This document shows positions 10,935 to 61,961 of a stretch of DNA of 64,000 bases, in pieces (within the stretch, counting starts at the first letter, position 1; every line of letters starts with the position of its first letter). The stretch comes from Trueperaceae bacterium (GTDB lineage Bacteria; Deinococcota; Deinococci; Deinococcales; Trueperaceae): the NCBI GenBank assembly GCA_965213705.1, contig OZ243913.1, forward strand, positions 2,816,001 through 2,880,000, in the 5' to 3' direction. Made by a program: the position numbers and the translations under genes. Under the pieces are notes generated by a model that worked only from the letters and a program-made list of their open reading frames with translations, was not told the DNA's origin and searched no databases.

Positions 10935-11061
10935 GTGCTAAAGTCAGCGTCAGTAACGCCGTCCATTTCAACTTTTAACTCACGTGCCGTAACCCCAGCT
11001 TGCCCTCCAGCCTCAGAGTGGTGGGAGAGAAAACCGAAAAAGCGCCAATTTTGAAAACCTA

Positions 11062-11101
11062 GTGGGGGCTTGTGGGAAACCGTGGTAAAGTGTGTTACAC
11101 T
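11062..11101 (+). promoter_or_regulatory. dcw promoter with MraZ-binding direct repeats
   Basis: GTGGG/GTGGG/GTGGT/GTGTT at exact 10-bp periodicity (11062, 11072, 11082, 11092), overlapping an extended -10 TGnTACACT upstream of mraZ. Confidence 0.8.
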
Positions 11102-11191
11102 CACTTTAGTGCGGGGACGGCGTGTGTCACGTATAGACGAAGCTCTAAGCTGTAACCGCGCAAATCGGTGGGAGTGGGAGCTGGGTGGGAG

Positions 11192-11629
11192 ATGCCCTTC
11201 GGCGAATTCCAATATTCGGTTGACGACAAAGGTCGCGTCATCATCCCTCCCTCTTTCCGGGACTTTGTGGACGACGGCATGGTCGTCACCAGGGGCATGG
11301 AAGGCTGCTTGTACGTGTTTCCGGTCGCCGCCTGGCGCAACATCGAAGAAAGGCTCTCCAAGTTGCCGCTGACCGACGCAAGCGCGCGCAGCTTTGTGCG
11401 CTTTTTTTACTCGGGCGCGTCCAAGGCGATGTTCGATTCGGCGTCGCGCGTGACCCTGCCCCAACCGCTCCGCACCTTTGCCGGCATCGACGACAACGAC
11501 AACAGCGTGGTGATTGCGGGCGCGCCCAACCGTTTGGAAATCTGGAACGAAGCGAGATGGCTCAGCAACCTCATGGAGGTTCAAAACCAACCTCCCGCGA
11601 GCGAACTTTTGAGAGAACTCGTCGGATGA
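11192..11629 (+). CDS. mraZ: Division/cell wall cluster transcriptional repressor MraZ
   Basis: Two AbrB-like repeats (DDKGRVIIP, DSASRVTLP); first gene of the dcw cluster. Confidence 0.95.
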   Translation: MPFGEFQYSVDDKGRVIIPPSFRDFVDDGMVVTRGMEGCLYVFPVAAWRNIEERLSKLPLTDASARSFVRFFYSGASKAMFDSASRVTLPQPLRTFAGIDDNDNSVVIAGAPNRLEIWNEARWLSNLMEVQNQPPASELLRELVG

Positions 11630-57270: not shown

Positions 57271-57326
57271 CTCGACAACCACATCAGCATTGCCTGAAAA
57301 TGCTGATGTGGTTGTCGAGTTTTTTT
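57271..57326 (+). terminator. Long perfect-stem terminator
   Basis: 21-bp stem CTCGACAACCACATCAGCATT / AATGCTGATGTGGTTGTCGAG followed by T7. Confidence 0.8.
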
Positions 57327-57408
57327 AAGAGTCGCTTTTCTACTTATACGCAAAAACAAGGTGCGTGAAAGCGGGGTGCGCAAGACGAATTCTCGAGGCA
57401 GCTACAGT

Positions 57409-58440
57409 TTATAGAGCTACGGATTGGAAATTTGGGACAGTCAGGGGATAGTCGAAGGTCGTACCCAAACCGGCTTCGGGCGAGCAGCGGATTTCACCGC
57501 GCTTATAACACCGCTCGAAGACGGTGACTAAGTGCGGGTCGAACTGCTCCGCAGCTGCTTCACAAACGTAGTTAAGTGCTTTGTCGGGCGGCATCGGTTG
57601 CCGGTAGGGCCGGCGGCTGGTCAGCGCTTCGAACACGTCGACGATACTGATGACGCGGCTCAGCAAGGGTATAGCCTCGCCGCTGAGCCGGTGCGGATAG
57701 CCGGTGCCGTCGTAGCGTTCGTGGTGTGAGCGCACAATTTCGGCAATCTGCGCAAATTCACGCGATACCGAAGCGAGCAGGTTCGCGCCGTAGTCGGGGT
57801 GCCGTTTGACCTCGGCATACTCGACCTCGGTGAGTGCGCCGTCCTTGAGCAAAATGTATTCGGGAATAGCGATTTTGCCCAAATCGTGTAGCAGCGCGCT
57901 CCAGTAAAGCTGCTCTAGCCGCGTCTCACTAAGGCCTAAAGCCTGGCCGACGACCAGGGCGTTTCTGGCGACGCGCTCGCAATGGCCCTGGGTATGTCGG
58001 TCGCGCACCTCGACGGTACTGGCAAGGCTCGAGAGCATCTTGGTGTACATCTCCGACAAACGGTCGACACGCTTCTCAACTTTGTGGAGGCGCATCGTGA
58101 CAGCTTCGAACAGCGCGCCTACAGTGATACCAAAAAAAAGGTAAAGGCTGCTAGCTAACCAAGCCACGGCAAATTTCTCCTCACTCGGTCCGAAAAAGTA
58201 AGTCAGCAAAGCTACGAGCAGTCCCACCACAAAACCGCCGCGCAGTCCAAAAAGAGCCGCCGCCAACAAAATAGGTAGGTAGACAAGTTGAGCAAGAAGC
58301 GCGGGCACTCCCTGCGCCGTCAGCGCGACAACCGCGACGGCCACAAATAAAAGTGTCGCTACCGCCGCGACCCCCAACATGACGTGACGCTGTGGCAGCG
58401 TCCCCTGACGCGTCAGGGGACGCTGCAGACGACCTATCAC
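57409..58440 (-). CDS. Membrane-anchored HD-GYP cyclic-dinucleotide phosphodiesterase
   Basis: N-terminal TM helices; HTQGHCERV, LLHDLGK, HHERYDGTGYP, DVFEALTSRRPY and QFDP motifs. Confidence 0.9.
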   Translation of the reverse strand: MIGRLQRPLTRQGTLPQRHVMLGVAAVATLLFVAVAVVALTAQGVPALLAQLVYLPILLAAALFGLRGGFVVGLLVALLTYFFGPSEEKFAVAWLASSLYLFFGITVGALFEAVTMRLHKVEKRVDRLSEMYTKMLSSLASTVEVRDRHTQGHCERVARNALVVGQALGLSETRLEQLYWSALLHDLGKIAIPEYILLKDGALTEVEYAEVKRHPDYGANLLASVSREFAQIAEIVRSHHERYDGTGYPHRLSGEAIPLLSRVISIVDVFEALTSRRPYRQPMPPDKALNYVCEAAAEQFDPHLVTVFERCYKRGEIRCSPEAGLGTTFDYPLTVPNFQSVAL

Positions 58441-58634
58441 AAACAGCGCTCTGGTTTACGGGTGACTTGGTTGAACGACGACCTAACGAGAACCACGAAA
58501 GCAAAAAACTCCACGAGTCACATCCTCCTTCGACGTAGCTCGCAGAGTAAAACAAAGACGCTTAGAAAACGCTTAGAAACGCTTGAAAACTGTTTTCCGT
58601 AAAACAAATTATAGTAACTTAAGCTGAAACTTGG

Positions 58635-58733
58635 TTACCTAGTAGAACCGGCACCTGCCATAGCCAAGAAAGGTAAGTTAGCAAGAACTAAAAAAACAGT
58701 TGCGTAAAAAATTTTTCTCCCGTTGTTTTTCAT
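58635..58733 (-). CDS. Putative secreted signalling propeptide MKNNGRKIFYATVFLVLANLPFLAMA|GAGSTR
   Basis: 32-aa ORF with a basic N-region, hydrophobic core and A-x-A cleavage site; purine-rich RBS; alternative ATG at 58745. Confidence 0.65.
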   Translation of the reverse strand: MKNNGRKIFYATVFLVLANLPFLAMAGAGSTR

Positions 58734-59217
58734 TTTCTTCCCCATTCTCTTCCCGTGCTCCCGCACGTTCGCAGGTTTTCCTACCCAAGGTTCTCCACAC
58801 CTCTGGTAGCGCCTTCGCGGTCTCCCAACCGATAAAGGACTTGGGGCCAAACAGAGCGCCGTCTGGCTTTTGGTCGCTAAGTTATGAGGAGGTGTTGCAA
58901 GATGTAAAGTGTCGCGCTCCCTTAGCTCCCAATTTTTTCCTAACAACTCCAGGACTCCCACCCTGTTTGTGTTGTCAGCGCCGCAACCCTTCTCCCAAAG
59001 AGTAACAGCTAAGTATTAGAATAACACATAACCCCCTCATTCATAAGTACACATGCACAAAATGATAAGTATTTCACACAGCGTCAGAAAAGGCGTGTGG
59101 GGTAGGATTTTTCTGCTGCAGTTTTGTATTTTTATGAAAAAATCAAATTTAGGTAGATATATGAACTTTTGAATAATACTGTAAAAGCTATAGTCTTAAG
59201 GTGAGGTTCCTCTAATC

Positions 59218-60924
59218 GTGGCTAAGACGGTCTACGACATCATCGCTGAAAAGTATCCAGGGGTTGAACTCGAGAGCCCTGTGCAGGGTTGGGTATACTT
59301 GGAAGAGTATGAAAAAGGTATAGAAGCTCACCAAAAGATGATTCAGGTTCACACAACCGCTTATGATGACCGTTGGCTTGGAGTTTGTCATTTTCAACTG
59401 GGTAATGATTTGAAGGCCATTGAAGTTTTTTACCGAGCTATCGCACGATTTGATGAAGCGGCTCGAATAAACTTAGCGTTTGCTTTTTCTTTTGTCGAGC
59501 GAAAAAAAGAGATGATTTTAGAGTTGCAAAAAATCAACTTTACTAATCTCAACAAATATGATAAAGCACTATATCTGCGAGTGAAGAGCTACTATGAAGA
59601 GGCGCAAGGTAACGTACAAAGCGCTTTAAACGATGCAGAGCGTGCTTGGGAAATGATTCAAGGAATTCCAGAACTTCCTATTCTTGCACCACAAATTTTA
59701 AATCAATTAGGCATTCTTCACGCTAGGATAGGGCGGTCACAACGCGCTCTATGGTACATAGAACGCAGTTTAGAACTGTCGGAAGCTATGGAGCAAAAAA
59801 AGGGTCTTTTAAGACGTGCTTGCCTTTTTACGATATTAGGAAGATATGAAGAGGCATTAACGGATTTAAAAATTCTCAGCGCCGCGGAAACTCCAGTTTA
59901 CCTCACAGCAGAGCAATTTCTCCGAACAGGTGACGCTGTTTGGGCTATGCGTAACACAGCTGAAGCTGTAGAATTTTATGAGAAAGCAATAACGTTAGCT
60001 CTCGGGAATCAGTACAGCTTCGAGGAATTTTCAGCTAGACTAGCTTTAGCTTCCATCTACGGATTTCAGTCTCTTGTCGCGACGGCGGGTGAACACCTTG
60101 CACGTGCCAAAGTTTTGATCAGCGATAATACAGACGAATTGGCCTACCAATTCCGAGACATTTTGGTCTCTCGTTTTGCAAACGAACTTACCTCTCAACA
60201 GACCGCAGACGAGTTGGCTTTGGTAGCAAAAGAGTTCGGGGAAATGGGTCTTTTGCAAGAGCAAGGCTGGGTTCGGCTCCACATCGCCGAGATGCACCGC
60301 CAACTCGGCGACGAAGTCAGCATGTTGCGCGAACTCGACGAGCTTCAAAAGCTTGCGGTGACGCTGCAAAACAACCACTTTTTAGCAAGAGAATGGACCC
60401 TCGTCCCCAAGCTCCGTGAACTCGCCCTCAAAACCCATCCGAAGATTGCGGGTAAGTCGCCGGACGTTTTGGAGATTTATACAATGGGCGAAGAAAAGCT
60501 CGTGCTGAACGGCAAGGTCGCTAACGTGCGCATGACGAAGGCGGTCGAAATCATCGCGTACTTTCTGGAGCACGGCAAGGTGGGCTTAAAAAAGATGCTC
60601 CTGGACGTGTTCGCCGACGAGGAACCCAAGGCGGCGCGCAACTATTTTCACCAGTTCAAGCACGAGTTGAACAGCCGGATGCCGGGTTTGACCGTGGAGT
60701 ACGACTCAGGTGAACGGCTGTACTCGCTGAAAACCGAGGCCGACGTTTTGTGGGACGTGGCCGAGTTGCGGGCCGGGCGCAAGATGGGGGCGTTGGGTAT
60801 CTTTTTGCCGGGCTCGGGCTCCGAGTGGGCGCTCGTGCTCGAGAACGAACTCGAGCCCTTAAAACAGCGCGACGAGGTGTTTCCCGTCGTGCAAATCAGC
60901 CGCAAAGTTTCCGTCAAAACTTGA
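59218..60924 (+). CDS. TPR-repeat protein with C-terminal winged-helix (SARP/OmpR-like) domain
   Basis: Repeated TPR helices (LGVCHFQLGNDLKAIEVF, LGILHARIGRSQRALWY, GRYEEAL); C-terminal LEIYTMGEEKLVLNG...KAVEIIAYFL...ARNYFHQFKHEL. Confidence 0.8.
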   Translation: MAKTVYDIIAEKYPGVELESPVQGWVYLEEYEKGIEAHQKMIQVHTTAYDDRWLGVCHFQLGNDLKAIEVFYRAIARFDEAARINLAFAFSFVERKKEMILELQKINFTNLNKYDKALYLRVKSYYEEAQGNVQSALNDAERAWEMIQGIPELPILAPQILNQLGILHARIGRSQRALWYIERSLELSEAMEQKKGLLRRACLFTILGRYEEALTDLKILSAAETPVYLTAEQFLRTGDAVWAMRNTAEAVEFYEKAITLALGNQYSFEEFSARLALASIYGFQSLVATAGEHLARAKVLISDNTDELAYQFRDILVSRFANELTSQQTADELALVAKEFGEMGLLQEQGWVRLHIAEMHRQLGDEVSMLRELDELQKLAVTLQNNHFLAREWTLVPKLRELALKTHPKIAGKSPDVLEIYTMGEEKLVLNGKVANVRMTKAVEIIAYFLEHGKVGLKKMLLDVFADEEPKAARNYFHQFKHELNSRMPGLTVEYDSGERLYSLKTEADVLWDVAELRAGRKMGALGIFLPGSGSEWALVLENELEPLKQRDEVFPVVQISRKVSVKT

Positions 60925-60962
60925 AAGCGTGTTACGCTCTTGGCCTAAACCAGGAGGACTAG

Positions 60963-61961
60963 GTGCAGCTAGCAAAGTTTTCGCGCAGACGGTACACGCA
61001 AGGATTTACGCCGCTCGAAAAGCTCGAGCACCTCACCGAACACTTGGGCGGCCCGAACTTGTTTGTCAAGCGGGACGACCTGCTCGGACTCACCGCCGGC
61101 GGGAACAAGACGAGAAAGCTCGAGTTCCTAGTCGCGGACGCGCTCGCCCAGGGGGCGGACACCCTCATCACGGTGGGCGCGGTGCAGTCGAACCACTGTC
61201 GCCTGACGCTTGCGGCGGCGGTCAAGGAGGGGCTGAAGTGCCGCCTCGTCTTAGAAGAGCGCGTGCCGAACAGCTACGACCCGGACTCGAGCGGGAACAA
61301 CTTTTTATTCAAGCTTTTGGGCGTCGAGAGCGTCAAGGTCGTCGCGGGCGGCGCGGACTTGGCGGCGGCGATGGGTGAGGTCGCTGCCGAGCTTGAGGGT
61401 GAAGGCCGCAAGGGCTACGTCATCCCCGGCGGCGGCTCGAACAGCTTGGGCGCGCTCGGTTACGTGAGCTGCGCCGAGGAGATTTTGCAGCAGAGTTTCG
61501 ACCTGGGCCTCGAGCTCGAGCACATCGTCGTCTCGTCGGGCTCGGGGGGGACGCACGCGGGCATGGTCGTCGGGAACGTGGGCAACAACAGCAACATCCC
61601 CGTTACCGGCATCAGCGTGCGGGCGAAGAAAGAACCCCAAGAGGAGAAGCTGCACAAGTTGGCGAGTGAGACCGCCGACCTCCTCGGCGTTCGCGGCGGC
61701 GTGCCGCGCGAAGCGTTTACCGTGCTCGACGACTACGTCGGGGCGGGCTACTCGCTGCCGACCGCGGGCATGGTCGAGGCGGTGCAGTTGTTCGCGCGGC
61801 TCGAGGGCATCCTGCTCGACCCAGTCTACACCGGCAAAACGGCCGCCGGACTCATCGACCTCGTGCGCAAAGGGCATTTTGAACGGGGCGAGAACGTGCT
61901 GTTTTTGCACACGGGCGGCGCACCGGCGCTCTACGCTTATCAAGACGTGGTTTTAGACTGA
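60963..61961 (+). CDS. PLP-dependent D-cysteine desulfhydrase / D-cysteate sulfo-lyase family
   Basis: KRDDLLG, GGNKTRKLE, QSNH, SGSGGTHAG, DPVYTGK and LHTGG motifs. Confidence 0.9.
   Translation: MQLAKFSRRRYTQGFTPLEKLEHLTEHLGGPNLFVKRDDLLGLTAGGNKTRKLEFLVADALAQGADTLITVGAVQSNHCRLTLAAAVKEGLKCRLVLEERVPNSYDPDSSGNNFLFKLLGVESVKVVAGGADLAAAMGEVAAELEGEGRKGYVIPGGGSNSLGALGYVSCAEEILQQSFDLGLELEHIVVSSGSGGTHAGMVVGNVGNNSNIPVTGISVRAKKEPQEEKLHKLASETADLLGVRGGVPREAFTVLDDYVGAGYSLPTAGMVEAVQLFARLEGILLDPVYTGKTAAGLIDLVRKGHFERGENVLFLHTGGAPALYAYQDVVLD

Follow-up and report, generated by a model that had tools for sequence, protein, structure and literature searches.

What does a 32-codon open reading frame (ORF) do between the gene for a TPR regulator and the gene for a membrane HD-GYP phosphodiesterase? 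The question is raised by positions 57409 to 60924 of the window, a 64,000-nucleotide stretch of a Trueperaceae bacterium genome (assembly GCA_965213705.1, contig OZ243913.1, positions 2,816,001 to 2,880,000 of the forward strand). The original prediction, made from the letters of the stretch, saw here a peptide quorum-sensing cassette. Our analysis indicates that the locus is probably a peptide-signalling switch, in which the tail of the small protein would be exported, re-imported, bound by the TPR superhelix and used to control transcription, with a small RNA (sRNA) gating the peptide supply. The three protein-coding genes are listed below.

59218..60924, + strand: candidate receptor-regulator gene, 568 aa, with a TPR/SUPR superhelix at about residues 1-406, a SARP-type winged helix at about residues 417-518 and a BTAD stub.
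58635..58733, - strand: propeptide gene, 32 aa, a 26-residue signal peptide plus the tail GAGSTR; the tail in relatives is mostly G-x-x-x-S-Q-R, 7 residues.
57409..58440, - strand: membrane HD-GYP phosphodiesterase gene, 343 aa, with intact catalytic motifs; an inherited, optional member of the cassette.

The ORF at 58733-58635 on the minus strand translates as MKNNGRKIFYATVFLVLANLPFLAMA followed by GAGSTR, 32 residues in all. An alternative in-frame ATG at 58745 would give 36 residues, but the relatives begin with MKN and a purine-rich ribosome-binding site (RBS) lies ahead of 58733, which makes 58733, and not 58745, the predicted start. Among 42 distinct relatives with 33 codons, the pN/pS ratio was 0.03 for codons 1-9, 0.56 for codons 10-26 and 0.61 for the tail (codons 27-33). 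Ala26 and Arg33 were unchanged in all of them, with four codons used for each, and the RBS was also conserved; the tail in the window is one codon shorter than in most relatives. The signal-sequence traits found by our own filter and by conservation were a basic n-region, a hydrophobic core, an invariant Ala at -1 and a small or aliphatic residue at -3. The 6-residue tail unit is doubled in two relatives (AGLEHR twice in locus L033, SGAERR twice in L036), which marks the tail as the selected unit. Repeated mature-peptide units also occur in Rap propeptides, according to the available text of PMC11343458. Judged by conservation and selection, the predicted signal-peptide ORF with its GAGSTR tail is a genuine, conserved propeptide-like gene.

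To place the peptide beside its receptor, we searched for receptor relatives at an E value of 1e-15 or better in 364 Deinococcota genomes; scoring covered three candidates in each genome, so copy numbers are minimum values. Matches were found in 127 of the 364 genomes: 61/127 in the window's own family and 43/125, 18/19, 4/68, 0/23 and 0/1 in the other families. Matches in bins from outside the Deinococcota lay on short contigs at 42-47% identity; these are likely misbinned and were not counted in the range. TPR-BTAD clusters of the Atlas in other phyla, at 0.92-0.94, are leads only.

Neighbourhoods were taken from 120 regions around the better of 172 receptor matches, comprising 48 close and 72 distant loci. 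Our own signal-peptide filter (not SignalP) accepted ATG-started ORFs of 24-75 aa with a basic n-region, a hydrophobic core and an A-x-A-like site; 4 of the 72 distant loci were dropped for short flanks, and kin among the counted loci are not independent. Such an ORF stood on the divergent strand upstream of the receptor at 45/48 close and 43/68 distant loci, as the original prediction had expected for TPR homologues. The same strand upstream gave 4/48 close loci (three of them antisense shadows of the peptide gene) and 0/68 distant loci, the downstream side, counted per strand, gave 0/39 and 2/60, and ORFs of at least 400 aa in this genome had one upstream in 16/1177 cases, this receptor included. 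On these counts, the adjacency of peptide and receptor exceeds chance, and the contrast is large.

The first neighbours of the distant receptors (70 of 115 neighbours scanned) included secreted peptidases, ATP-grasp, a radical SAM gene, LuxR and transposases. Among individual distant loci, the propeptide is followed by an MvdD-type ATP-grasp in L143 and by a B12 radical SAM gene in L141. Two propeptides stand in tandem in L131, and the propeptide lies downstream of the receptor in L105 and L107. At L214:5780 (genome G272) propeptide gene and receptor are not linked, and the former lacks the hairpin leader; at L222 (G299) the receptor follows a MalT-like gene and no peptide was found.

The receptor gave TPR hits by Pfam (TPR_1, E 8e-12) and no NTPase family in the same search. 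Its structure model (pLDDT, a per-residue model confidence, of 94.7) is all-helical over residues 5-406, with helical repeats at 1-406 followed by a winged-helix-type alpha/beta domain at 417-518, which bears out the claim of a divergent 568-aa TPR protein with a C-terminal winged helix. The C-terminal domain matched EmbR residues 9-88 by profile (E 9e-4), and the secondary structure in the model agreed with an OmpR-like winged helix. In the fold search the sensor ranked alongside MalT DT3, Rap, NprR and AimR, with MalT domain III as the best match; Foldseek alone gave just generic TPR matches, the best bacterial one being RapJ (TM 0.70 by target). The relatives are mostly 540-680 aa long. BTAD was found in 0/15 short forms, this receptor among them, versus 18/21 long forms. 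The output predicted from the model is a SARP module with most of BTAD missing here, and the domain order is inverted relative to RRNPP. Since the output is of SARP type and MalT domain III is the best sensor match, the system looks independently assembled. Thus, of the proposed RRNPP analogue in Deinococcota, the inverted order and the Rap/NprR-like sensor fold held up, but the system is not an inverted RRNPP.

Peptide and receptor also correspond in form. A degenerate pattern of the first nine propeptide codons had one match each in 47/364 genomes, all in the window's own family (reversed control, 0), and the short-form receptor was present in 46 of these 47. The tail class of the long forms with full BTAD differs: 38/44 start with D/E/N/G/H/Q and then P/G, and 34 of those are Gly-rich. 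Covariation of tail and TPR pocket had been proposed as a check. In 13 sister pairs, tail differences followed the divergence of residues 51-350 (rho 0.58, p 0.04), while residues 351-505 gave rho 0.17, which suggests that changes in the tail and divergence of the TPR part are weakly linked.

The behaviour of the tails also bears on the possibility that the peptide stays in the periplasm, where the loop would report the cell's own capacity for export, processing and uptake, or envelope leakage, and not density. Deinococcota possess an outer layer, there is one chromosomal copy per genome and none in viral contigs, and tails are often identical across species, unlike fast-diversifying pherotypes. 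On the other hand, congeners with 83% identical receptors differ in their tails, and the TPR part diverges faster there; moreover, distant members precede secreted peptidases and a graspetide-type ATP-grasp gene, typical density-controlled goods. We therefore regard such self-sensing as unlikely and prefer a signal that is released and taken up again.

An RNA layer, consisting of a hairpin leader and a C-rich sRNA, is an addition to the original picture of the locus. The features of the leader are the following.

58734..59012, - strand: 5' leader of the propeptide mRNA, structured and about 280 nt long; it has a G-rich RBS and four copies of UGGGAG, and is the likely docking site of the C-rich sRNA.
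58980..59009, - strand: leader hairpin 1 with a UGGGAG loop, present in the minimum-free-energy and centroid structures.
58950..58965, - strand: leader hairpin 2 with a UGGGAG loop, called from motif and fold.
58818..58831, - strand: leader hairpin near -94 with a UGGGAG loop, called from motif and fold.
59018..59026, - strand: predicted extended -10 of the leader/peptide transcript, placed by consensus and position; a TTGAC -35 is added in relatives.

In relatives the leader is about 130-280 nt long, with a conserved sigma-70-type promoter on one side and the start of the peptide on the other. Across 46 intergenic spacers, the peptide strand has 154 copies of TGGGAG and the opposite strand a single one; among 6-nt loops closed by at least 4 pairs, TGGGAG was the loop word 90 times (runner-up, 9 times). 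The hairpin 1 alignment, which was chosen by position, was 86% paired versus 67% after shuffling, with 40 two-sided changes versus 13.8 and a covariation score of 0.62 (slid controls at most 0.27). The hairpin near -90/-94, aligned at 37/39 sites with two omitted as repeats of the hairpin 1 set, was 89% paired versus 67%, with 44 two-sided changes versus 15.2 and a covariation score of 0.70. The U-G closing pairs in the hairpins indicate an RNA on the peptide strand. Rfam gave nothing near gathering scores for the cassette loci of 7 relatives, and just 2/72 distant loci had a hairpin, one each.

Two other explanations of elements in this region were discarded. A protein sponge of the CsrB/RsmZ type was rejected because CsrA (PF02599) was found in 0/41 genomes (control genomes, 3/14) and a complementary sRNA exists. 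A conserved TTATACG-like word upstream of the peptide promoter was rejected as an operator; it would read as the receptor's own -10 on the opposite strand. Elsewhere in the window, at about 11020-11200 (+), GTGGG repeats with a period of about 10 nt and three TGGGAG words precede an mraZ-like gene (named by eye); these are presumably MraZ sites, unrelated to the leader hairpins.

In 21/48 close loci the sRNA lies 26-2078 nt behind the receptor ORF; in this genome it is 1 Mb away. About 88 nt long, it comprises a hairpin with a CUCCCA loop, a CU-rich linker and, in its terminator, another C-rich loop. The CUCCCA loops complement the UGGGAG loops of the leader, and the CU-rich linker complements the peptide RBS. 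A covariance model seeded from 16 of those 21 copies found the sRNA in 91/128 family genomes (the tallies include one unpublished genome, G330, on which nothing else here depends), in 53/55 genomes with a short receptor and also in 38 genomes without one. This genome has it twice (contig positions 1864254-1864335 and 3347590-3347666). Rfam gave nothing near gathering scores for 4 sRNA loci. For 27 sRNA-RBS pairs, the mean predicted duplex energy was -24.1 kcal/mol for cognate pairs versus -22.6 kcal/mol for permuted pairs (a mean as low arose in a fraction of 0.0007 of the permutations; kin among the pairs are not independent). The duplex of the window, at -23.1 kcal/mol, ranked 18/27 among sRNAs and 69/6654 among ORF starts; the predicted RBS match here is decent, not specific.

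A second G-rich element, with GGAAGAG and UGGGAG sites and a terminator, is a candidate sponge. In this genome it lies beside the sRNA gene at contig positions 1864090-1864170 (-) (L290), and in L034, L035, L037, L043-L045 and L072 it follows the receptor directly on the 3' side.

Could the RNA be the main product? The leader would then sponge or target a global C-rich sRNA, the peptide would be a by-product or a membrane peptide like a type I toxin, and the TPR link would be old synteny next to rpsA. At locus L046 (G019) the promoter, four hairpins, RBS and HD-GYP gene are kept, but the ORF is down to 12 codons, lacks a signal peptide and has a GxExR-like end, being either decayed or leaderless; the sRNA is also more widely spread than the peptide (91/128 versus 47 genomes). 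However, long-form receptors have divergent propeptides without the hairpin leader, apart from the single hairpins noted above, so the receptor-peptide pairing exists independently of the RNA layer. Nor was an overlapping antitoxin gene seen. An RNA-centred locus is thus very improbable in our view, and we continue with the sRNA as a likely regulator of a proposed peptide signal.

The sRNA promoter has no -35. It carries a direct repeat, TGTAAG-N5-TGTAAG, with at most two mismatches in 20/23 copies, and this box stands exactly 10 nt ahead of a -10 in 22/23 copies. A matrix of the box found 69 sites in this genome versus 13 in the reversed genome. The -10 was in place at 40 of the 69 sites, including 4/10 HD-GYP genes and two genes named by eye, one TPR-GGDEF and one PilT-like. 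TGTAAG-N5-TGTAAG-N10-TAnnnT is a genome-wide promoter class, with sites for example at C1:36404 (-), 3999834 (+), 1056477 (-) and 2472981 (-). The box was found in 72/128 family genomes (reversed control, 1); 14 of these genomes are at least 90% complete and yet have no receptor match. The receptor as sole binder of the repeat is therefore not supported, and another winged-helix protein probably binds it, alone or additionally. The receptor-peptide spacer had no good TGTAAG box in 45/46 loci (one 18-bit hit, in L036), and none was found behind the peptide.

Candidate binders are OmpR-type regulators and an 830-850-aa MalT-like protein. This genome has 10 Trans_reg_C genes. The MalT-like protein is a cassette neighbour in about 29 loci and occurs in 106/128 genomes. 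Here, an 844-aa MalT-like TPR-winged-helix gene lies 0.88 Mb from the cassette (L224:4450-6981 (-), equal to C1:1994446-1996980), accompanied by a receiver-HD-GYP gene and by a convergent, propeptide-like ORF of its own.

The HD-GYP gene was the third part of the original prediction, both as a co-oriented membrane phosphodiesterase and as the output of the system. Two further features flank it.

58520..58577, - strand: conserved elements in the gap between peptide and HD-GYP gene, of putative function: a direct repeat at 58561-58577, a predicted -10 at 58544-58549 and a hairpin with a purine loop at 58520-58536.
57272..57326, strand unassigned: likely terminator closing the cassette, a 20-bp hairpin and T-run between sodA and the HD-GYP stop.

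The protein matched HD_5 (E 1.6e-40); four membrane helices are predicted, and the HHExxDGxGYP and RPYR motifs are intact, so the gene itself is as described. The motif set of HD-GYP phosphodiesterases (HD dyad, HHExxDGxGYP, metal-binding Asp, RxYR) is complete in this predicted enzyme. A membrane HD-GYP gene directly follows the peptide in 15/42 close loci with enough flank. The 17 cassette copies and two extra paralogues form one clade (support 0.92), which argues for inheritance with losses and not for repeated recruitment. By eye, most of the 17 gaps between peptide and HD-GYP gene contain a small purine-loop hairpin, and a conserved activator-type TGTAAG box was absent in front of the cassette HD-GYP. 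GGDEF, EAL or HD-GYP neighbours were found at 10/64 distant receptors versus 47/1500 random windows of this genome (a background that is not genome-matched). Turnover of cyclic di-GMP (c-di-GMP) would thus be a frequent output, not a defining one.

The same gene suggests a further alternative: the 32-mer would escape cleavage and stay in the membrane as a single helix, with an invariant N-terminus that lies in the cytoplasm and tethers or inhibits either the TPR regulator or the HD-GYP enzyme in the membrane. Codons 1-9 are indeed near invariant at the protein level, the HD-GYP has membrane helices, and small signal-peptide ORFs stand beside other HD-GYP genes (4/10 here, 12/64 loci in nine genomes). 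Against such a tether, the Ala at -1 and the terminal Arg are invariant and the residue at -3 is small or aliphatic; the tails are doubled in L033 and L036, whose N-termini differ, and the N-termini of the long-form clade are wholly different; and the peptide is retained where the HD-GYP gene is lost. We consider the tether rather improbable and retain the cleaved tail as the probable active part.

The additional signal-peptide ORFs beside HD-GYP genes, found at the above frequencies versus 0.46% of random windows, may represent a second peptide family. In this genome, ORFs of 41-46 aa with an RBS lie at 127845-127979 (+), 187661-187795 (-) and 1994295-1994420 (+). They stand mostly just behind a cupin-like class of HD-GYP (also in L239, L251, L252, L257 and L274).

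The genome has a G+C content of 61%, and the stretch 58500-60250 is mostly at 36-48%. A contig from a public DNA run was identical over 58539-59288, with no differences (possibly the source sample itself). Runs X1 and X2 held diverged, lower-depth copies of the cassette (window 57300-61000) in the same sample, pointing to several related carriers together. Viral contigs, searched with the close alignment, gave no relative, and phage carriage was rejected on that ground.

We propose the following mechanism. Sec export and signal-peptidase cleavage after Ala26, for which the sequence pattern is present, would release GAGSTR. Re-import would run via one of 13 Opp/Dpp-type systems (this genome has 13 SBP_bac_5 genes). 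Once bound in the MalT/Rap-like superhelix, the tail would bring about a switch of the SARP-type winged helix, as the predicted folds suggest. The C-rich sRNA likely gates peptide output post-transcriptionally at the leader loops and the RBS, consistent with complementarity and hairpin covariation. The membrane HD-GYP, retained in about one-third of lineages, would be one likely output, lowering c-di-GMP.

A broader proposal, which we offer only tentatively, is an independent, phylum-wide peptide quorum sensing in a double-membraned lineage that joins a MalT-type sensor to a SARP output. In Trueperaceae, a direct-repeat regulon would drive a C-rich sRNA that docks on the loops and RBS of the pheromone mRNA, and regulon and cassette would both feed c-di-GMP enzymes; a Rap-like receptor and CiaR/csRNA-like feedback would thus have been made from unrelated parts. 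If true, a family in 127/364 Deinococcota genomes, with another domain order and output, would mean that this design evolved anew, and did so in cells that have an outer envelope. The proposal is directly testable, since homologues occur in cultured Deinococcus and Meiothermus relatives, the tails of 6-12 residues are cheap to make and each receptor has its own candidate ligand. The leader, sRNA and promoter box would be the first concrete regulatory network with named parts for Trueperaceae, which are hardly studied, though common in soil, sediment and sludge metagenomes.

No description of the cassette family was found in titles and abstract openings (RRNPP with Deinococcus and UGGGAG included), subscription papers and supplements lying outside the scope. 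The available text of PMC6546367 lists a 'TPR protein', C3a198 (Mrub_1490, Meiothermus), among CRISPR type III accessory families, in a table row without peptide or function.

The cassette shares parts with several known regulators. With the MalT-type STAND regulators (1hz4) it shares the SUPR sensor superhelix, but the NTPase (NOD) module of MalT is absent here. With the SARP regulators EmbR and AfsR it shares the OmpR-like winged helix, but here this module is C-terminal, with a BTAD stub in the Trueperaceae form. Unlike either group, the receptor has a peptide gene alongside.

The comC pheromone of Streptococcus pneumoniae has an exporter dedicated to it and signals through a membrane kinase. 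In that species, CiaR boxes (TTTAAG-N5-TTTAAG) precede csRNAs that repress comC, according to the available text of PMC8186281. The likeness lies in a direct repeat with 5-nt spacing at sRNA promoters (TGTAAG-N5-TGTAAG here) and in pairing with comC there and complementarity to the propeptide mRNA here. In contrast, our candidate receptor is cytoplasmic and the sRNA has no Rfam match.

In RRNPP regulators the effector, an HTH or a helix bundle, is N-terminal and the TPR sensor is C-terminal. Compared with Rap-Phr, NprR-NprX, PlcR-PapR and AimR-AimP of the RRNPP(A) group, the sensor comes first here and the DNA-binding domain last, in a receptor of 568 aa, and the output is an OmpR-like SARP winged helix instead of an N-terminal HTH or helix bundle. 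The host belongs to the Deinococcota and not the Bacillota, and the peptide mRNA has a long, sRNA-matched leader. PMC10075063 and PMC9765709, in their available parts, treat the sensing of peptides inside the cell by TPR receptors as a trait of Bacillota, and the word stem 'Deinococc' occurs in neither of these parts. As given in the former, RRNPP(A) systems have a propeptide of 10-100 aa, a Sec/SPI-type signal, a receptor of about 250-500 aa, TPRs and adjacent genes. Four of these five traits (propeptide size, signal sequence, TPRs and gene adjacency) are found here, the exception being the receptor length. The cassette would work like an RRNPP system, yet is not classed as a member, since its domain order and type of output differ.

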